Positions 34,827 through 57,161 of a stretch of DNA of 64,000 bases are shown here, in pieces; position 1 is the first letter of the stretch; each line of letters opens with the position of its first letter. Origin of the DNA: an uncultured archaeon. GTDB taxonomy: Archaea; Asgardarchaeota; Thorarchaeia; Thorarchaeales; Thorarchaeaceae. A model generated the notes under the pieces. That model was not told the origin of the DNA, made no database searches, and saw nothing but the letters and a program-made list of their open reading frames with translations. The translations under genes were made by a program, and so were the position numbers. The stretch covers positions 32,001 through 96,000 of the forward strand of contig CAYYQL010000006.1 of assembly GCA_964473825.1 (NCBI GenBank), in the 5' to 3' direction.

Positions 34827-34934
34827 GGGCCGATAGTCTAGCCCGGCTATGATACCGCATTGACATAAGTCATTGATTTCCAATTTCTTTCAAAGGTGCG
34901 GTGGTCGCTGGTTCAAATCCGGCTCGGCCCACCA
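34827..34934 (+). tRNA. tRNA-Val(GAC) with a 30-nt canonical 37/38 intron (34866-34895)
   Basis: GGGCCGA/TCGGCCC, CCGCA-TTGACA^...^G-TGCGG; strict BHB (TTGA/TCAA helix). Confidence 0.92.
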
Positions 34935-48315: not shown

Positions 48316-51300
48316 TCAGTGAAAGAAACCATCCAGAACCTCGAAGAACTCTTCCATGTTCACTATGTGAAATCTAGTCCAGTTTCCCTCCTCCAATAGC
48401 TGCAGAATGCTATCTACTACCTCATCACCACTGACACCTCGTGGAAGCTCCCATGAAAGAGAGTCAAGAATCTCATCTGCCTCTCCAGCTCGTCTCACCT
48501 CCAAAGTGAGCGTCCTCCTCTGCAAGTCAGCCTCCAGTCGGGCGGGCATTTCTCCATCCCTCAGGCCCCGCTTCTCAAGTGCGCTTCTGATTCGAGTGCG
48601 CTGAGCTTCTGGATCATAGATCGATTCTTCCGGAATCTCTGACGTGATATTCCTCCAGAGATCATCTAAGACATCTGAGAGCTCTCGGACTACTTCCAAT
48701 TCATAGGTGAATGAGCGGTTCTTCCAGTATTCACCCGTCAGACTAGATAGAGCTGTCCACTTGAGCCAGTCATCTCTGATGGTCAAAGATATCTCCCACC
48801 TCTGCTGCTCAGCTCGAAGATAGGTCCCAGTTTTCAGAGATGAAACCTTGAGTCCACTCTTCCGCAGAATCTTTCTAATGAGTGGGCTCTCGCGGAAGAC
48901 CAAGCTCTCTCGCTGAAGGTCTGATGGAAGAATCACATTGACCGGGTGTATCTTGGAATCAAAGACTATGCTCTCGGATCCGAGTCGGAGGATGATCTCT
49001 CTATCAGTGAAAAGGCCGCAGAAGACGTCCAACATTTCCTCATTCTCTCCCTCAAGAGTTGACTGCCAGCATCTGCCATGTTCCTTCCCCTCTCCCGAAG
49101 CCAGTGGACACTCGTTCTCGTTGTGGGATAGTCGAAAGCTGAGCTCCTTACCACAGGGGAGGGCGTGTAGGTCCGCTACTCTGGCCGGTAATCGGATATC
49201 GGCTGTTTCGGGAATGAAGGTTTCACTGACATTCGCCATGAGTGAGAGATCTCCATATTCGATGCCACTAAACCGATCCCAGAAGACCATTTGCCCAGAC
49301 GATAGTCTCACAGGTAGGCCCTTGCGAGTAAGGGTCAATGTATCGATGAGATTTGGCGTGAAGTGATGCTCTATCATCTGCAGGGACTCATCATCTTCGT
49401 TCTTGATGTCCACTCTGCATCCCTCATCTGTCCATGACAGCTCCACTGACACATGTGTCTGCCCTTGAATCCGACTGAGGACACGTTCAATAGCCTTTTC
49501 GAGTCGATGAGATAGACTGGCTGGAACCAGGATATCAGTAGATCTTCGTGAGATTGGTTCTGAGATAGGATCTTGTCTAGTGGCCCGGAGCATCGCGATT
49601 GAGCCCGTTGGTCTACCAGGGATGAAGTCGAACGAGCTCCTTAGAATCCAGTCTGACTCCTCTGTTTCTCTTGTCCAGAACAACCAATTCTCACTGTTTT
49701 GCTGGAGAGCCAGAGAGATGCGAGACCCTGTATCTATGAGTTCGCGGACACTGTCAGTGTGCTCTGAGATATCACTCTCAGCCCATTGCATCCCATCAGG
49801 ACGGGTAGCCAGCCTTTTGTTGAAGAAGCCCACAAGGACTCTAGCAGGATTCCTCGGGTCTTCCAGTGCAACAATGCTGATTGGTTGATCAGGGTCCTCT
49901 GAGTAGACTATCTGACCAAAGCTGGCAATCCTGGGTTTGGGAGATTCAACAGTCTTAGGATAGGAGTCCCTCGCCTTGGACTTGTTCTGCTTGGGGCCAC
50001 GATAGAGTCGGTGAGCATTAATCTGGCCGAGGAAGATATCGGCAAATGCCTTCTGCCTTTTTGTGCGAGGAGGACGATACATGAGCCTATGCAGTAGAGT
50101 GGGTACATCTGTCGGCTCACGGGAAAGAGAACGTCTTGTTATTGTCAGACCTTCCATAGACTCATGAAACTCATTGAAGAAGTCACGGAGAGCATCTGAG
50201 AAACTCACACCGGGTGAAACCTCTGTGTTGGGCCACAGGTCAGCCAACCAAGGAAGCAGGCTCATGGCCAGCGACCTGATCCGGTCTCGAACCCACGCCT
50301 TCGGTACAGCCTGTTCCTGTGGTTCAGGTATCTCTGTCTTGGCCCGATCATATTCTTCGGTTCTGAACTTGGCAGTCCAGTGTCTGAGAACCGGGATGTG
50401 CAAAAGTGAGCTCTCAAACCCGAAGGACGACTGGGCCACCACGACTCTTATGTCATCAAACATGGGACTTCGAGGAGCAGACTGACGGTGCCACGAGTCC
50501 GGGTCGATGACTCGTTCAGGCGCACATGGGAGGTTCCATATGATCTCATCCAGTTCACCCACAAGGGGAGAGGTATCACGCACAGGAATCAGGCAGTTGG
50601 TCGAGTAGATTGGAGTTCTTCTCTCATACTTCACCGGCCTGGAGAACCAGAGGATGGTTGTCTGTTCGTCATCGGATAATCGGTCTACCAGCTCCGCCAG
50701 CAAGCGGTTCATGCGGTCTCGATACAGTGAGGGCGTTGAGCTTTCAATCGCGTCCCACCCTGACACAACTAGCAGACGGGGCTGTTTCACCTTGTCTTCC
50801 AACACCCGCGACAGGTCAATCATCGGGCCGCCATTGTAGAGATATGCCTGAATCTCAGCGAAGAGTGGTTTGAAATCTATGGAATGGAGGGTTTCCTGCA
50901 CTGCATCTGACAGACCATTCTCGCCCGACCGCAGACGCGCCCTCAACCGAACCTCAGCAAGGGAGGTTGTGGAAAACTCGTCAGCCAAGTCAAGCCAGAC
51001 AACACGGAGGTCAGGAGCGCCCTCTCGAAAGTCATGGATCATCTGCAGACCGTGATGATGTGCTGCAATCCAAGCAGCTGAGAGCCCTGCTGAGGTTGGA
51101 GATGCGGCGGCGATATAGAGAATGAAGCGTCGAGCACTGATGCCAGCACCGATCAGTGGGTCATAGGGCGGTTTCCATTCCGGTGGCACCGGCAACTCTC
51201 TGTAGTCTGGAGTGTGTTCTTGGTTGTGGACCACGAGGGCCATGCGCGGTCTCAGCCCATCCCTCGAAACCTCAAAGGCTATTCGTCGTCCAGACAGGTC

Positions 51301-52899
51301 TTCTGTCAGACATGACTCGAGCGCACTCAAGAGAAGCCCCCGTATCATTCGTCTGCTCTCTCTGCTCTCGTCGCTGGGGTCCATGACGAGTGTGGCACGA
51401 ATCACCCTCGGAGGGCTCTCAAGATGAGCAATCGACCCAAAGACCTCAGACAGGGCCTCCGCATAAGCATCCAGCTGGGTAACGGTGTTCGGTTCAGGGG
51501 TGCCATCAACGACCTGTACCCACTCCTTAGGGCTGAGGGGCCGGAGAGAGAGCCTGAACCGTGGGACCACCCGCTGGACCATCCCGTGCCGCTTCCGAGA
51601 TGACGAAGGCCTTCGTTCAGGCTCCATATACCACTTGAACCCACAGCGGGTCTTGACCTCCACCACCATCAGCGGACGCCAGAGGGTACGGAGACCTGTT
51701 GGTGCGGTCTCCCTTCTGAACACGACCAGGTCTGCCCTCCCCTTGCCCAGCGAGGTCCCCAGAGGTAGCTCTGCGACAATCCTGAGACCTCCTCCGGCCC
51801 CATCACGGTCATCGTCGCGGATGGCTCTCCGTACATCCAGAAACCGGTCGAATCTGTCCGTGATGCGCCTGTGGGCCTGGGCCCCCACCCTCTTCGTCCG
51901 TCGAACGGCACTCTGCCACAGGTGTTTCACATCATCACTGGTCAGGCGTGGTGCCTTCTTCTCGTGCTCGTCCGTCAGGACCTCGGACCCGCCTGACAGG
52001 ATTCGGGCAAACTCCCCGGTCAGTACCGAATCCACCCCGGCCGCCTCCGCCTGCGCCAGCTGCTCCTCGAAGAAGTCCATGCTGAAACGGGGACGGGAAT
52101 ACGCCGCATGGGAGGACACGGTCTCAGGCTCACCCACCCGAACACCGTGGTGTGCCGCGATGTCATCACGGATCTCCCGCAGCAGCCTGACCGTCCCATC
52201 CCTAAAGCCCGACGACCCATGCTCATGCTCGGTGTACAGGTGGTCGAGGTAGGTCCGTGCCCGCAGGATGAAGAGGTTGCTGTACCTCCGTGTGTCCCGC
52301 ACCGACACATCGTGGATGTAGGCATCCGTGTTCAGGACCTGGATGTGCTGGCGCAGGGCGTCCATGAAGTCCAGCTCGGTGAGGAAGCGGTGGACAGGGG
52401 GATAGGCGGGGCAGCGTGCGTCGCCGGGATACCCCTGACCGATGTGCTCCCCGTTCTCGTTGAAGAGGGGCTGCGGCTGCCCCATGGGGTAGTAGATCGC
52501 CCCAGACTCCCGCAGAGCCGCGCCCCCAACGTTGAAGCGCTGGTTCAGGGGGCCCACATCCTCGTACCACCGTCGCGCCCGCACGGTCTCGGTGCAGCCA
52601 TAGAGGGCTGCGTTCTCCTCTAGCATGTCCAGACCATTCTTCCTGATGTTGTGCTCGGCCTTCATCACGTGGCTGAAGTCCGGGGCACCCACCGCCCTCG
52701 AGATCTGGTAGGCCTCCGTGTACCGGTGCAGGATGTCACGGGAACTCTCGTACAGGTGGCGCGTGGTCGCGTTCCGAATCGTGCGCTGCAGGTACACAGC
52801 CGTGGACAGACCTGTCCTCATCGCCCGTGCCAGCACCCTGTTCGGATGCCTCGGGTACGGCCTCGCCCGCGGGCCACGGCTCCCTCTCATTCGCGCCAC
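48316..52899 (-). CDS. 1527-aa multidomain protein with a RecB/Cas4-like PD-(D/E)XK nuclease domain
   Basis: GAQAH, AELPL...GRADLV...VEVKT and QLDAY motifs; the rest is unassigned. Confidence 0.7.
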   Translation of the reverse strand: MARMRGSRGPRARPYPRHPNRVLARAMRTGLSTAVYLQRTIRNATTRHLYESSRDILHRYTEAYQISRAVGAPDFSHVMKAEHNIRKNGLDMLEENAALYGCTETVRARRWYEDVGPLNQRFNVGGAALRESGAIYYPMGQPQPLFNENGEHIGQGYPGDARCPAYPPVHRFLTELDFMDALRQHIQVLNTDAYIHDVSVRDTRRYSNLFILRARTYLDHLYTEHEHGSSGFRDGTVRLLREIRDDIAAHHGVRVGEPETVSSHAAYSRPRFSMDFFEEQLAQAEAAGVDSVLTGEFARILSGGSEVLTDEHEKKAPRLTSDDVKHLWQSAVRRTKRVGAQAHRRITDRFDRFLDVRRAIRDDDRDGAGGGLRIVAELPLGTSLGKGRADLVVFRRETAPTGLRTLWRPLMVVEVKTRCGFKWYMEPERRPSSSRKRHGMVQRVVPRFRLSLRPLSPKEWVQVVDGTPEPNTVTQLDAYAEALSEVFGSIAHLESPPRVIRATLVMDPSDESRESRRMIRGLLLSALESCLTEDLSGRRIAFEVSRDGLRPRMALVVHNQEHTPDYRELPVPPEWKPPYDPLIGAGISARRFILYIAAASPTSAGLSAAWIAAHHHGLQMIHDFREGAPDLRVVWLDLADEFSTTSLAEVRLRARLRSGENGLSDAVQETLHSIDFKPLFAEIQAYLYNGGPMIDLSRVLEDKVKQPRLLVVSGWDAIESSTPSLYRDRMNRLLAELVDRLSDDEQTTILWFSRPVKYERRTPIYSTNCLIPVRDTSPLVGELDEIIWNLPCAPERVIDPDSWHRQSAPRSPMFDDIRVVVAQSSFGFESSLLHIPVLRHWTAKFRTEEYDRAKTEIPEPQEQAVPKAWVRDRIRSLAMSLLPWLADLWPNTEVSPGVSFSDALRDFFNEFHESMEGLTITRRSLSREPTDVPTLLHRLMYRPPRTKRQKAFADIFLGQINAHRLYRGPKQNKSKARDSYPKTVESPKPRIASFGQIVYSEDPDQPISIVALEDPRNPARVLVGFFNKRLATRPDGMQWAESDISEHTDSVRELIDTGSRISLALQQNSENWLFWTRETEESDWILRSSFDFIPGRPTGSIAMLRATRQDPISEPISRRSTDILVPASLSHRLEKAIERVLSRIQGQTHVSVELSWTDEGCRVDIKNEDDESLQMIEHHFTPNLIDTLTLTRKGLPVRLSSGQMVFWDRFSGIEYGDLSLMANVSETFIPETADIRLPARVADLHALPCGKELSFRLSHNENECPLASGEGKEHGRCWQSTLEGENEEMLDVFCGLFTDREIILRLGSESIVFDSKIHPVNVILPSDLQRESLVFRESPLIRKILRKSGLKVSSLKTGTYLRAEQQRWEISLTIRDDWLKWTALSSLTGEYWKNRSFTYELEVVRELSDVLDDLWRNITSEIPEESIYDPEAQRTRIRSALEKRGLRDGEMPARLEADLQRRTLTLEVRRAGEADEILDSLSWELPRGVSGDEVVDSILQLLEEGNWTRFHIVNMEEFFEVLDGFFH

Positions 52900-53099
52900 T
52901 CTCTCTTCGTGCAGAAAACTATCGTATATGCTGTGACCATATCAAATGTTGGCTTAATATTTTTCGATTGATATTTTCAGGCTTAGAGAACGAATAGACT
53001 AATTCAACTAGTTGTTTATTCAAATTGCTTCATAACTTTATATGCTTTCATACTTACTCATTGTAGGAGTTCAAAACGGCCCTGCAAGCACAAGGAGGC

Positions 53100-53122
53100 G
53101 AGTGAACTCCACTTAGTGGACT
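53100..53122. repeat. Left arm of 23-bp imperfect inverted repeat bracketing tnpB-like copy 1
   Basis: GAGTGAACTCCACTTAGTGGACT is the reverse complement of 54911-54933 at 19/23 positions. Confidence 0.7.
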
Positions 53123-53143
53123 ATCAGAACTTTATATGCGAAG

Positions 53144-54829
53144 ATGATGGCGATGGTCAAGTCCCAGGAACCAGTAATCACGGTCAAGATTCCCATCAAC
53201 TGGGAGGAGATGACCGCGAGGGCACAGCAGCGACTGCGCCAGATGGTGGGACGTGACACCAGAGTCATCCGAGCGTTCTTCGGGATCATCGAAGAGAACG
53301 AGGAACAGCTCTTGAGGGGGAGAAACAGGGACCGGATCGATGAGAACAAGCTGCATGCTATGACCATGACTGCCCTGAAGGTGAGCAAGGGACAAGAAGA
53401 ACGTCCTGAGGTAGAGCACGACCTGAAGGAGCAGTTCCCGAGAATATCAGCAAACGAGCTGAGTGAGTGCCGCAAGGTGGCTGTTGCGAATTACGAGAGT
53501 TACCTGGCCTTGAAGAGGAAGCGATGGCGGAAGGCGTCACGACCCAGTGAGGTGAATCGGAGCCAGCGGATACCGAGAAGAATCTTCATTCCGTATCGGG
53601 CTGAGCTGGTTCATCATAAGAGCACTGTGGCAACGTGGTGGCTGGAGCTGCGTGACTCCCTGGACTCGGTCCCTGAACGACGGCGGGTACATGATAGACT
53701 GACGGTGCCGCTGAAGACCTCCCCCTTTCACCTTGAGCAGCTGGACAGGGGAGATAAGAAGTCTGTGCAGGTGTTCACGGACAGACGGGGGAAGTGGTGG
53801 GCAGCGGTTGCTGTGCGATTGCCCGGGGTCGAGGCTGAGTCAGAATTGCCACCTGCAGTGTTGGGAATCGATCTGGGAATCAACCGTGCGGTCTGTACGA
53901 CGTTGGTGACGCCCTCAAAGGTCTCGGAGACCCGGTATTTTGTCCAAGAACATAAGGTCAGACTCATGAAGAAGTATGATGACCGATTTGCCGACCTGCA
54001 GCGGGAACTTCAATTCTGTAAGGCTGACACGGAGCGGCACGATAACGTGGCTGCTAAACTCCGGAGCCTTCGCTCCAAGCGAGAACAGGTCTCCAAGGAG
54101 TACGACAGGCTAACCGTTAGCAGACTCATCTCGTATATCGAGGAGCTGTCACAGAAGTGGATGGTCTACGTGGCAATAGGCCGCGTCAAGGGCATCCGCA
54201 ACACTGCTCGAAAGGGGAACTACAAGGGAAAGAAATTCAGAGGGATGGTGCATCGCTGGAGCTTCGGGCGGGTGACGCGCACGCTAAAACACGGGCTCGA
54301 GCAGCGAGGCTGGAGAACCGAGGGAAGGAAGAGCCGGTTTCATGTTGTCCCTGAGAACTGGACCTCCATCACCTGCTGGAAGTGCGGCCATCGAGGTGTT
54401 CGTCCCAAGCAGTCTCTGTTCATCTGCCATACTTGTGGGTTCAGAACGAACGCTGACAGAAACGGTTCCCTGAATATCGCGCGTCGATTGATCACGCTCA
54501 TTCCGTCACTTACGAATGAGAACGGACTAGGGCGGTGGGCCACTCCTCAGCGGGAGCTCGGCTCAGCCCCGAAGGCTGTGAGGAAGACCCGTTCTTCTAA
54601 GCAGAAGTCCGAACTTGCTCGCAATGGCCCGGCATCAGGCCAGAGCAAGTCCGCGGTGGTTCGCCCCACTCAGATGAGTATCCTTGACTTTGGTGACGAA
54701 GTTGCGGGTGGCGATGATGATAGTGCCGTGGGAAGAGCTGTGGAAACACTCTCTGCTTCCAGCAATGATGCGGCTGAGTTAAAGCAGGAGAAGGAAGCTC
54801 GGGTTACAGGAGGGACCGTGTCCCAATGA
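53144..54829 (+). CDS. tnpB: TnpB/Cas12f-like RuvC nuclease, copy 1 (rearranged catalytic Glu)
   Basis: VLGIDLG (D243), VAIG346, VPE404NWTS, CWKC..CHTC zinc finger, NAD438RNGSLNI. Confidence 0.88.
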   Translation: MMAMVKSQEPVITVKIPINWEEMTARAQQRLRQMVGRDTRVIRAFFGIIEENEEQLLRGRNRDRIDENKLHAMTMTALKVSKGQEERPEVEHDLKEQFPRISANELSECRKVAVANYESYLALKRKRWRKASRPSEVNRSQRIPRRIFIPYRAELVHHKSTVATWWLELRDSLDSVPERRRVHDRLTVPLKTSPFHLEQLDRGDKKSVQVFTDRRGKWWAAVAVRLPGVEAESELPPAVLGIDLGINRAVCTTLVTPSKVSETRYFVQEHKVRLMKKYDDRFADLQRELQFCKADTERHDNVAAKLRSLRSKREQVSKEYDRLTVSRLISYIEELSQKWMVYVAIGRVKGIRNTARKGNYKGKKFRGMVHRWSFGRVTRTLKHGLEQRGWRTEGRKSRFHVVPENWTSITCWKCGHRGVRPKQSLFICHTCGFRTNADRNGSLNIARRLITLIPSLTNENGLGRWATPQRELGSAPKAVRKTRSSKQKSELARNGPASGQSKSAVVRPTQMSILDFGDEVAGGDDDSAVGRAVETLSASSNDAAELKQEKEARVTGGTVSQ

Positions 54830-54955
54830 CGGTGGCCGAAGCTCTTGCTTGCTCTGGGGTGGCTCCCAGAAGTAGCGGTGACGCTGGGCAAGAGAAGAGC
54901 GGAACACAGAAGTCCAACCAGCGGAGTTCACTCAACCCCAGCCATGGGAGTACAC
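54720..54955 (+). ncRNA. omegaRNA/reRNA-like structured RNA of copy 1 (boundaries approximate)
   Basis: Three-way junction 54842-54894 that covaries with 56729-56779; conserved GGAACAC..AAGTC..CACTCA end. Confidence 0.6.
54911..54933. repeat. Right arm of the inverted repeat / element right end
   Basis: AGTCCAACCAGCGGAGTTCACTC; a degenerate homolog lies at 56797-56818. Confidence 0.7.
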
Positions 54956-55049
54956 TTTGTCTTCTGAAGAGCAAAGCCATGCTTTTTCTCTTGCTGCAGT
55001 TGATCGATTCCGCAACTGGACTGTTAGTAAATAGGCTGAGGCGACGACG

Positions 55050-57161
55050 ATGGCGGCTGCTACGAACCCTAGAATCGCGGTAAAGATACCGATTGCATGG
55101 GAGAGCATGTCGTCTTCTTCTCAGCAACACTTGGAACAGATAGTGGGTAGGGACTCCCGAGCAATCAAGAGGCTCCTGGGCATCATTGAACACAATGAGG
55201 ATGATCTACTCTGTGGTAAGAGAAGGAACAAGGTGAGCCTGGGGCAACTCAACAGAATCACCATGACTGCGACGAGGGGAAAGGCCAACCGGACCAAGGT
55301 CCCGCATGACCTGAAGGTTGACTTCCCGCGGGCCTGTGCCAGCGACCTCGCTGAGTGCGTCAAGACAGCTGTCAGTCTGTACAACAGCTACCTTGCCCTC
55401 AGGCAGAAGAGGGGGTGGAGAGCGTCCCGACCCTGTAAGTCGAACTCCTCAGGACGTATCCCTCGATGGATGTTTCATCCCAAGTCCTTCCGATTGGTTC
55501 AGCATGAGAACACGACTGCGCGGTGGTGGATGTCCCTGAGGGACTCGATGGACTCGAACCTTGAGGACAGGTTGCGCCATGACAGGCTCATGATTCCCCT
55601 GAAGATGTCCCCCTTCCATGAGAACCAGCTCCAGCGCGGCGAGGTCAAGGCTGCACAGGTCTTCACTGACCGGCTGGGAAAGTGGTGGGTCACGATATCC
55701 GTTCGTCTGGCTGAGACTCCAGAGGTCAGCGACGAGAACCCACCTGCTGTGCTAGGAATAGACCTGGGGATTGAGAAGGCTGTCTGTACCACTCTTGTCA
55801 CCCCTGAGAAGGTGCGCGAAACGCGCTACTTCACACAGCAGAAGAAGGTCCGTCTTCTGAAGCAGTATGATGACAGAGTCGCAAGTCTGCAGAGCGAGAT
55901 GGACCTGAAAAAGGCTCGCGGCCAACGCTATGATGGTGTTGCAGAGAGACTGCGCTCTCTCAGAACCAAGAGAGAGTCCGTGTCCAAGGAACACGATCGC
56001 GTCCTGCTCCGGGAACTGATCGACTACATCCTGGAGCTGAGTGAGAGGTATACACTCTTTGTCGCGATTGGCAGGCTCAAGAACATCCGAAATAGTGCCA
56101 AACGCGGTGACTGGAAGGGCCGAAGGTTCAGGGGCATGGTCCATTCATGGGCCTTCGCTCGGATAACCGAGGGACTTCGACGACAGCTCGGTCAGCTGGG
56201 TTGGCCTGTTCTGGGTAAGAAGTCGCGGGTCCACGCAGTCCCTGAGGCATGGACATCCATCATCTGTTGGAAGTGCGGGCAGAGAGGAACCAGACCCAGA
56301 CAGAACCTCTTTGTCTGCTCCTGTGGAAACAAGTGCAATGCCGACAAGAACGGAGCCATCAACATCGCCGGACGCCTCATTACGCTCACAGAGTCACTCA
56401 ATTCTGTGAGAGGACTAGGGAAGTGGGCTAGTGCAGCCTCTGCACGACGCACGCAACTGAAAGCCCGGAGGAAGACATCTTCCAAGGGGAGGTCCTCACT
56501 CTCAGGGCGCGATGCCTCATCTCATCGCGGAGAGTCCGCGGCTGTTCACTACGCTCAACCGAGCCTCCTCGACTTCGGTGACGAGGCTGAGGTGAGTGAT
56601 GACGGTCCAGCCGTGGGAAGAAACGTGGAAAGACTCTCTACCGCTGGAACAGATGAACCAGCAGAAAAGGTAGGAGAAGGAAGCCAAGACAGGAAGAGAA
56701 GTGCCACTTCTATGATGCCTGACAAAGACTCCATCCCTCCCCGTCGCCAGACAGGGAATGGTGGCAACACCGGGTGGAGAAAGGGTGGAACACGTAAGTC
56801 AACTAGAGAAGCCCACTCACTCATCAAGGGAGCCGCAACACCACTTCGAATGAATAGGAGAAGAGAAGCATGGATGGTGCGGCCACCGGGAATCGAACCC
56901 GGGCCCCATGCTTGGAAGGCATGGATCCTGACCACTAGACTATGGCCGCTTCACAGAGAGCTGACAGCCCATAGTCGATTTAAGGCTATTGCAGTGGCGC
57001 CGCGAGTTGACAGTCCGGGGAGTGGAAGGTGGATCCTTGCCTTGGAGGTCCGACACTCTTTCAGACCATGCATCTGGCTGAAGGTCATACGAAGACCAGT
57101 TCATCATGTCGAGCAGAACAACAGATATCTGGAGGAGAAGCAGACAAGAGGAGCGCGCTGA
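55050..57161 (+). CDS. tnpB: TnpB/Cas12f-like RuvC nuclease, copy 2 (tail frameshifted; homologous stop at 56713-56715)
   Basis: VLGIDLG, VAIGRLK, VPEAWTS, CWKC..CSC and NADKNGAINI; colinear with copy 1. Confidence 0.88.
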   Translation: MAAATNPRIAVKIPIAWESMSSSSQQHLEQIVGRDSRAIKRLLGIIEHNEDDLLCGKRRNKVSLGQLNRITMTATRGKANRTKVPHDLKVDFPRACASDLAECVKTAVSLYNSYLALRQKRGWRASRPCKSNSSGRIPRWMFHPKSFRLVQHENTTARWWMSLRDSMDSNLEDRLRHDRLMIPLKMSPFHENQLQRGEVKAAQVFTDRLGKWWVTISVRLAETPEVSDENPPAVLGIDLGIEKAVCTTLVTPEKVRETRYFTQQKKVRLLKQYDDRVASLQSEMDLKKARGQRYDGVAERLRSLRTKRESVSKEHDRVLLRELIDYILELSERYTLFVAIGRLKNIRNSAKRGDWKGRRFRGMVHSWAFARITEGLRRQLGQLGWPVLGKKSRVHAVPEAWTSIICWKCGQRGTRPRQNLFVCSCGNKCNADKNGAINIAGRLITLTESLNSVRGLGKWASAASARRTQLKARRKTSSKGRSSLSGRDASSHRGESAAVHYAQPSLLDFGDEAEVSDDGPAVGRNVERLSTAGTDEPAEKVGEGSQDRKRSATSMMPDKDSIPPRRQTGNGGNTGWRKGGTRKSTREAHSLIKGAATPLRMNRRREAWMVRPPGIEPGPHAWKAWILTTRLWPLHRELTAHSRFKAIAVAPRVDSPGSGRWILALEVRHSFRPCIWLKVIRRPVHHVEQNNRYLEEKQTRGAR
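56605..56840 (+). ncRNA. omegaRNA/reRNA-like structured RNA of copy 2 (boundaries approximate)
   Basis: CTCCATCC/GGGTGGAG stem enclosing two hairpins, including GGTG-GCAA-CACC. Confidence 0.6.
56875..56949 (-). tRNA. tRNA-Gly(TCC), intronless
   Basis: GCGGCCA/TGGCCGC acceptor stem, CATGC-CTTCCAA-GCATG, TTCGATT and CCA. Confidence 0.95.

Follow-up and report, generated by a model that had tools for sequence, protein, structure and literature searches.

The window analyzed here, a stretch of 64,000 nucleotides, lies on contig C6 of a 3.27 Mb, 95.7%-complete metagenome-assembled genome (MAG; G000) and carries two tandem TnpB-like genes, A and B, each with a match to Pfam family PF07282. Database homologs of copy A are named Thorarchaeota or Promethearchaeia (Asgard) transposases. 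Comparison with related loci indicates that a sequence upstream of copy A, complementary to the 3′ end of its omegaRNA, is part of a conserved unit resembling a CRISPR RNA (crRNA) in the 5′ leader of Thorarchaeota tnpB genes, and is not a terminal repeat. The comparison sample comprises 96 unique related tnpB loci (labeled L0xx); these are phylogenetically related, so that the permutation figures given below overstate independence. The features of copy A and its flanks, including two direct repeats (DR1 and DR2) and a motif that resembles a target-adjacent motif (TAM), are as follows.

53029-53033, + strand: TTCAT, the TAM-like motif directly 5′ of DR1; left flank of the mobile unit
53034-53045, + strand: DR1 (AACTTTATATGC), TATA-box-like promoter element with which the mobile element begins; proposed DNA target
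53066-53110, + strand: leader hairpin 1 (GGAGTTCA ... TGAACTCC), which encloses an inner hairpin; predicted fold
53100-53122, + strand: arm of the leader with complementarity to the omegaRNA, GAGTGAACTCC to its loop and GTGGACT to GAAGTCC
53111-53127, + strand: decayed hairpin 2 and tail ending in TCAG; in relatives CTGACC-GAAAC-AGGTCAG
53128-53139, + strand: DR2, an exact copy of DR1 that begins right after the scaffold-like end; proposed 12-nt guide
53144-54829, + strand: tnpB copy A, 561 aa if read from its first ATG; alignment with relatives makes the ATG at 53153 the likely start
54806-54942, + strand: omegaRNA scaffold, overlapping the stop codon of tnpB A; nhmmer match to the right-end profile at C6:86806-86942
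54911-54934, + strand: inverted repeat, right arm (AGTCC...GGAGTTCACTCA); in the omegaRNA, the terminal hairpin's 5′ strand plus its conserved loop

The initial annotation of this DNA reported that, of 23 positions, 19 agree between 53100-53122 (GAGTGAACTCCACTTAGTGGACT) and the reverse complement of 54911-54933, and we recovered exactly this match. When the leader (53000-53143) and the 3′ region (54830-54980) were shuffled 300 times, the best 23-mer complementarity ranged from 12 to 17 and never reached 19. The leader hairpin described in the same annotation is present as well, GGAGTTCA (53066-53073) being predicted to fold with TGAACTCC (53103-53110), and so are two identical 12-mers, AACTTTATATGC, at 53034-53045 and 53128-53139. 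The repeat extends to 16 nt with one mismatch, and a search of both strands of the whole assembly finds just two copies of the exact 12-mer. That these 12-mers are TATA-like holds; that they are mere flanks does not agree with the present reading, in which they form a guide/target pair. The inverted repeat is also conserved around homologous genes: its core (leader GAGTGAACTC against 3′ GTTCACTC) hardly varies among 75 related loci, and the outer part of the 19/23 match is clade-specific, with equivalent pairing taking its place elsewhere.

Copy A matches PF07282, the RuvC fold and zinc-ribbon (TNB) domain of TnpB, above the cut-off (E 1.3e-11), and its family profile matches the solved TnpB 9nzp (E 4e-14) and Cas12f. 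Residues D242, E403 and D437 are invariant in the family and are candidates for the RuvC Asp/Glu/Asp; at the canonical RuvC-II Glu position copy A has Gly. Judged by sequence, copy A is a Thorarchaeota TnpB, of an Asgard family that is Fanzor-like in its replaced RuvC-II Glu. Syntenic orthologs occur in other genera (L009, L008, L064 and L010, 65-91% identity); they have the upstream flank in common with the window and, the window excepted, adjoin the 3′ end of tRNA-Gly(UCC). The ratio of nonsynonymous to synonymous substitution rates (dN/dS) between A and its syntenic orthologs is 0.09-0.15, and the protein is therefore maintained under purifying selection. A search of the 95.7%-complete assembly for the Y1 transposase TnpA (PF01797) gave no match, with positive controls.

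We defined the ends of the mobile element from paralogs within one MAG. On the left, paralog homology is lost 1-7 nt upstream of DR1, at the boundary between TT[A/C]AT and DR1; on the right, it is lost 29-36 nt after the start of TTCACTC (the GTTCACTC loop), directly after GGTTAT or GGTCAT. By these boundaries, the element is predicted to span DR1 to GGTYA(G/T), with asymmetric ends and TT[A/C]AT as its left flank. The arms of the inverted repeat are thus subterminal, lying ~66 nt (left) and ~30 nt (right) inside the element. The paralog comparison revealed no target duplication around the whole element, and a search for empty sites with the upstream flank in five relatives returned only occupied syntenic loci and no recent insertion. 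The initial annotation had offered terminal inverted repeats (TIRs) mobilized by a DDE transposase as one explanation of the inverted match, and a significant 19/23 match flanking the gene is indeed what TIRs of a DDE-type, Fanzor-like element would present. Because the arms are internal and the ends asymmetric, this explanation fails; with no duplication flanking the element and just 8-11 nt of the match conserved, it is already contradicted, and we consider it very improbable.

A profile of the leader locates the unit directly upstream of tnpB in 86 of the 96 loci. Its consensus begins with (C)TT[A/C]AT and DR1 (AAnTTTAWATAnn), continues through ~20 variable nt and hairpin 1 (GAGTTCA ... TGAACTC, plus the inner hairpin) into an invariant GGAGTGAACTC, which includes GAGTGAACTC, and then through AA and hairpin 2 (CTGACC-GAAAC-AGGTCAG) into DR2, ~10 nt, AGGCGA or AGGTGA, ~5 nt and ATG. 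This architecture is unchanged over a range of 45-91% protein identity. In the leaders of L009 and L014, the two hairpins fold far better than in shuffled sequences (z −4.2 and −4.7). When pairing was counted on a hand-specified structure in 67 loci, 89.7% of leader cells were paired, as against 19-37% with the partner slid; for hairpin 1 the figure was 86%. In 11-18 loci, changes in the 5′ arm of hairpin 1 are uncompensated, yet its 3′ arm is fixed, indicating that some other partner constrains the 3′ arm. Hairpin 2, intact in L009 and L014, has decayed in the window copy, which retains the final (G)TCAG and both repeats. In a distant relative (L141:1000-1207) the whole unit, including the start-codon region, is tandemly duplicated, an arrangement that can be read as two successive unit-plus-guide modules, a two-member mini-array.

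The right end of the element carries the omegaRNA, whose profile was found in 85 loci; the scaffold overlaps the 3′ end of tnpB and stops at the right end. Its form is GGAACACAGAAGT-TTC-v1-GGTTCACTCA-v2-AAGAAAC-nGGTCA(G/T), followed by the element boundary, where v1 and v2 make up the terminal hairpin and GTTCACTCA is its loop. The presence of GTTCACTCA and a preceding variable stretch downstream of Asgard tnpB was noted by Altae-Tran et al. 2023 (PMC10691335), who suggested the variable stretch as a possible guide; the leader unit is not part of their description. In the window copy, the scaffold becomes unrecognizable just past the GTTCACTCA loop, and the 3′ strand of the terminal hairpin and the tail (the last ~25 nt) were not detected.

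The 3′ half of the leader unit (CTCAACTG..GAAAC.AGGTCAG) is a paralog of the right-end v2 and tail, and it carries in addition GAGTGAAC, which is complementary to the omegaRNA loop. At the sequence level, leader and scaffold are complementary over ~15-20 bp in three co-varying helices: GAGTGAAC(TC) with (GA)GTTCACTC, CAACTG with CAGTTG, and GAAAC with GTTTC, the last replaced in the window clade by GGAC with GTCC. The mean duplex energy is −25.7 kcal/mol for leader and omegaRNA of the same locus, compared with −22.3 kcal/mol across loci, a value reached by 0 of 2000 permutations; the window's own duplex, at −32.5 kcal/mol, is within the best 3% of partners. An ungapped register test showed little difference between own and cross-locus pairs outside the invariant core, because a 1-nt bulge shifts the register, and the duplex energies resolved this. 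Independent compensatory changes include GAGTGAGCTC with GAGCTCACTC in L043 and L084, GAGTGAAT with ATTCACTC in L019, GAATGAAC with GTTCATTC in L064, CACCTG with CAGGTG in L012 and L046, and CGAC with GTCG in L013 and L042; others occur in L028 and at the clade level. Single changes in the pairing core are mostly wobble-compatible transitions, which favors RNA pairing over DNA pairing. In all 61 of 61 loci the leader duplex is stronger than the one formed by the scaffold's own 3′ strand. The other explanation in the initial annotation, an RNA that pairs with the scaffold end as a split guide or for autoregulation, thus gains comparative support: the complementarity in the leader is maintained, it has changed in step with the terminal hairpin of the omegaRNA, and a guide-like copy of the promoter of tnpB itself comes after it. 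As proposed here, the arm at 53100-53122 would combine an anti-loop 'toehold' with a mimic of the 3′ strand of the terminal hairpin.

Homology of the leader's 3′ half to the 3′ strand and tail of the right end, together with a GGTCAG-DR2 boundary that looks like an end-to-end junction, could also mean that the unit is the remnant of an upstream tandem copy (a right-end-to-left-end, circle-like junction), or that a transposase acting in trans reads its hairpins and the subterminal inverted repeat as DNA signals, with the repeats kept alike by conversion. The asymmetric ends, as in IS200/IS605, and the tandem leader duplicate of L141 fit such a relic or signal, and an upstream tandem copy is a likely origin of the leader unit. 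As an alternative to a guide function, however, we find transposition improbable: the assembly yielded no Y1 TnpA, the unit is kept at vertically inherited syntenic loci with both repeats changing together, the right end has just one arm of the hairpin-1 sequence, whereas IS608-type ends have similar hairpins in pairs, and the wobble-compatible changes point to pairing of RNA, not DNA.

Past the right end of the element, L019 and L021, and likewise L017 and L047, which belong to different genera, have their first 14-15 nt in common (ATCGGTTGCCGGTTC and CTAAACCTTGCGCC, respectively) and then diverge. These flanks, equal in length to the leader guide, may be conserved guides or may reflect site-specific insertion.

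We determined the register and identity of the two direct repeats in 68 loci. DR2 is an exact 12-15-nt copy of DR1, and the sequence of the repeat varies among loci, each version being present twice (window AACTTTATATGC, L009 AGGTTTAAATGC, L064 AACTTTATATTG). DR2 begins directly after GGTCAG in 54 of the 68 loci, and after GGTCGG in 5. DR1 is preceded by T at −4 (68/68), A or C at −3, A at −2 (66/68) and T at −1 (67/68), so that a TAM-like 5′ flank is present at DR1 and absent at DR2, which is flanked by GGTCAG. The exact run shared by DR1 and DR2 has a median of 13 within a locus versus 2 across loci. At the variable positions 3, 8, 11 and 12, identity is.97,.99,.96 and.90 within loci and.31,.52,.36 and.28 between loci, and it falls to background at position 16. 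Among confident syntenic ortholog pairs (flank identity ≥0.77), including the window against L009, L064 and L008, ~30 changes are mirrored in DR1 and DR2 and 1 is one-sided. From this pattern the identity of the repeats appears as in-place co-evolution, and not as the footprint of an insertion. In a regulon search of the assembly with one mismatch allowed, DR1 was the sole copy of the 12-mer flanked by TT[A/C]AT.

Two other accounts of the repeats were considered and rejected. The 12-mers are not a target duplication made by Cas1-style insertion of a module of ~80 nt, since this module is conserved while the repeats co-vary at orthologous loci. Nor is DR2 the promoter of a leaderless tnpB mRNA: its TATA is too near the ATG, and transcription driven from it would start ~7 nt inside the open reading frame (ORF).

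DR2 lies 10-15 nt before the Shine-Dalgarno-like box (AGGCGA or AGGTGA) and the ATG, where a bound protein could block the ribosome. This position, the conserved and co-evolving complementarity between leader and omegaRNA, and the known processing by TnpB of its own mRNA into omegaRNA (PMC10278001) are what one would expect if pairing of the leader with an omegaRNA (in the same mRNA or already processed) governed the processing, stability or translation of tnpB mRNA, with no DNA targeting and with the TATA repeat incidental. Such control at the RNA level would leave unexplained why DR2 equals DR1 base for base, why the two repeats keep the GGTCAG and TT[A/C]AT register, and why their changes are mirrored in orthologs; moreover, DR1 lies upstream of the expected transcription start and would be outside the RNA. 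We regard this explanation as unlikely.

What was observed comprises the anatomy of the unit and its conservation, the joint variation of DR1 and DR2 and that of leader and omegaRNA hairpin, and the ends of the element. The order of the leader, a scaffold-like unit and then a copy of the promoter, is the polarity of an omegaRNA and its guide. We give somewhat better than even weight to the simplest reading, in which the leader is a split, crRNA-like guide that borrows the omegaRNA scaffold and sends TnpB to its own promoter. TnpB probably switches itself off in this manner, because the 12-nt leader 'guide' copies the gene's own TATA-box promoter. Applied to DR1, the established archaeal spacing between TATA box and start site would place the start of transcription ~26 nt past the center of the TATA box, near 53066, the first base and foot of hairpin 1. 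The leader RNA would then run from hairpin 1 through GAGTGAACTC and a copy of the terminal hairpin's 3′ strand and tail to 12-15 nt identical to DR1, its scaffold-like tail ending in ..ACAGGTCAG in relatives and in ..TCAG in the window. In the proposed mechanism, GAGTGAACTC would bind the GTTCACTCA loop of the 3′ omegaRNA scaffold as a toehold and the adjacent bases would pair with the 5′ strand of the hairpin, so that the leader unit invades or replaces the hairpin's 3′ strand. The scaffold would now present the leader guide in place of its own, which in the window copy is absent. TnpB loaded with this split RNA would recognize TT[A/C]AT and DR1, at once the TATA box of its gene and the left end of its element. 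A match of only 12-15 bases would let it bind without cutting and occlude the TATA box, closing a negative feedback loop. Transcription of the leader, RNA-RNA pairing in vivo, loading of TnpB and repression are all predicted steps of this model. TT[A/C]AT would serve as the TAM by analogy with the IS200/IS605 rule.

Short guides with this behavior have precedents: with guides of 10-14 nt, ISDge10 TnpB binds without cutting (PMC13507860), and guide-mediated autorepression is established for Cas12a, type I effectors and Cas9 (10.1101/2023.03.10.532045). The same guide could instead make TnpB cut its own left junction, leading to recombination, copying or loss of the element, as a step of mobilization or copy control in genomes without TnpA. 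The predicted target is exactly the occupied left junction, the candidate RuvC Asp/Glu/Asp residues are invariant, there are 10-35 copies in several relatives, and the window genome yielded no TnpA. Yet the match ends at 12-15 nt, where the TnpB proteins tested cut poorly or not at all, and cutting its own promoter would be costly for a gene at vertically inherited loci under purifying selection. Guided self-cleavage thus appears quite unlikely.

Several points weigh against a leader guide that represses its own promoter. RNAalifold, applied to a plain MAFFT alignment of the leaders, did not recover the hairpins and returned a meaningless 4-bp helix, and L048 and L050 have uncompensated C-A mismatches at the edge of the pairing core. 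The window copy itself may be partly degenerate, with hairpin 2 decayed and the 3′ strand and tail of the scaffold unrecognizable. Very short-tract gene conversion between DR1 and DR2 may keep the repeats alike. TT[A/C]AT overlaps the expected transcription factor B recognition element (BRE), and its conservation could reflect promoter function or insertion preference instead of a TAM. Loading of a bimolecular RNA into the TnpB of copy A is itself a predicted step. Finally, a search for sequencing runs that hold the window DNA retrieved only DNA metagenomes of microbial mats, from one study, and no RNA run.

It is instructive to compare the leader unit with known systems. The CreR and CreA RNAs, degenerate mini-CRISPRs, direct type I-B, I-E and V-A (Cas12a) effectors to the effectors' own promoters, which are thereby repressed (10.1101/2023.03.10.532045). 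As in CreR/CreA, a short crRNA-like unit lies just upstream of the effector gene, its spacer partly matches the gene's own promoter beside a protospacer-adjacent motif (PAM) or TAM, and the limited match favors binding over cutting; the target of haloarchaeal CreR includes the BRE and TATA box. The arrangement that defines such units is seen here: DR2 follows a scaffold-like end, the TATA-box DR1 is flanked by TT[A/C]AT, and the match is 12-15 nt long and co-varies. In contrast to CreR/CreA, the system has a transposon-type TnpB as its effector, with one omegaRNA and without a CRISPR array, the unit lies inside the mRNA leader and must borrow its scaffold by pairing with the omegaRNA terminal hairpin, and the function is predicted from sequence. 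For Cas9, autorepression reportedly (Workman et al., 2021, cited in the TldR preprint 10.1101/2023.11.30.569447) occurs through a long-form trans-activating crRNA (tracrRNA) with ~11-nt complementarity to its own promoter, without cleavage. This too is a natural short guide to the gene's own promoter, but Cas9 belongs to another protein family and its guide resides inside the tracrRNA, whereas here it would form a separate crRNA-like leader unit.

Functional splitting of an omegaRNA into tracrRNA and crRNA has been described for TranC (Jin et al. 2025 Cell, as summarized in PMC13565253). The two cases have in common a TnpB-like protein, a scaffold RNA and a separate RNA with a repeat strand and guide (here predicted), and differ in that TranC has CRISPR arrays beside the transposon RNA, whereas here there are one fixed self-targeting unit and an intact one-piece omegaRNA in mobile relatives. 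Asgard aCas1-associated TnpB (Cas1H-Asgard-1/2, PMC10691335) has a T-variable-GTTCACTCA arrangement downstream of tnpB, similar to GAAGT-variable-GTTCACTCA here. Unlike in the Cas1H-Asgard proposal, the variable stretch here behaves like a hairpin's 5′ strand, co-varying with its partners, and no Cas1 adjoins the window locus, the genome's only cas1-cas2-cas4 being on contig C19. Finally, the element resembles IS200/IS605 elements with tnpB only (IS1341-type) in its asymmetric ends, its short conserved left-flank motif, its many tnpB-less derivatives, and an omegaRNA that overlaps the tnpB 3′ end and finishes at the right end. It differs from them in its larger protein (~560 aa), the replaced canonical RuvC-II Glu, the lack of a TnpA match in the genome, and the extra internal 'right-end-like' unit and guide in its left end.

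The assembly contains at least 16 tnpB-less omegaRNA elements, which could act in trans as sources of guides and as competitors of the leader guide. One of them, on contig C19 (L057:1489-3417; L005:1440-1960), lies within ~50 nt after the cas1-cas2-cas4 genes. It has a CTGAC..GTCAG resembling hairpin 2, a TATA box, a 108-aa ORF homologous to the C-terminal tail of TnpB, and a full omegaRNA scaffold with a GGTCACTCA loop, and it recalls the published aCas1-TnpB link. Non-autonomous elements of ~470 nt, on contigs C12, C19 and C102 (L005-L007) and in many relatives, combine such a 108-aa frame (TnpB residues ~453-560) with an omegaRNA. Their left boundary falls between ..GTCAG and ATCTCC.., their right boundary directly after ..ACAGTTTAT, and dozens of such open tail frames occur in related genomes. 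Still smaller elements of ~150 nt, in at least 9 copies (contig C2, with five, C3, C6:1071, C18 and C82), hold only a minimal 3′ half of the omegaRNA scaffold, with a terminal hairpin CTTACAG..CTGTAAG, the loop G[GC]TCACTCA and an end directly after GATTAT; their 3′ flanks are all different, and they are candidate guide-only genes acting in trans.

Copy B lies between A and tRNA-Gly(UCC), at the following positions.

55050-57161, + strand: tnpB copy B, 55% identical to A
56875-56949, − strand: tRNA-Gly(UCC), whose 3′ end is adjoined by a single tnpB element in the orthologous loci

A search upstream of copy B with the leader profile found no unit. Its leader has the look of a decayed copy of the unit without the TATA repeats. 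The loop of copy B reads GCCCACTCA. The frame of copy B misses the family stop codon and runs on for 146 codons through its own scaffold (56708-56824) and antisense across tRNA-Gly(UCC); copy B may be a decaying copy or may be co-transcribed with A. Across the window, an Rfam scan reported three tRNAs and nothing else. One of these, a 105-nt tRNA at 34827-34931 that ARAGORN missed, presumably contains an intron; intron-containing tRNAs are usual in Asgard archaea. Divergent to tnpB A is an ORF of 1527 aa (48316-52899, − strand) with no Pfam match, which is syntenic with tnpB A in at least 3 other genera.

A literature search found no published description of a leader guide in TnpB. Tentatively, and with more doubt than confidence, we view the family as a living intermediate between a one-piece omegaRNA and a tracrRNA:crRNA system. 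Within this reading, TnpB may swap guides by toehold-mediated strand invasion of the terminal hairpin, in which the GTTCACTCA loop is the toehold and the leader RNA takes the part of a crRNA; the swap may first have served to sense the dosage of the element itself and of competing omegaRNA-only elements through autorepression of the promoter; and immobilized copies such as the window's, with a decayed 3′ strand and guide, may keep the leader as their sole cis-encoded guide.

The comparison yields a predicted TAM (TT[A/C]AT) and guide boundary for an uncharacterized Asgard TnpB family that is Fanzor-like in its replaced RuvC-II Glu, and it reinterprets the published Asgard 'hypervariable region + GTTCACTCA' as one strand and the loop of a hairpin. 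If the proposed mechanism is true, this would be the first natural transposon-encoded TnpB that controls its own gene by RNA guidance, and self-limiting TnpB editors could take over its design as it stands. It would, in addition, represent a bimolecular guide (scaffold plus crRNA-like RNA) that occurs naturally outside CRISPR, and would bear on the origin of the Cas12 tracrRNA:crRNA from omegaRNA.

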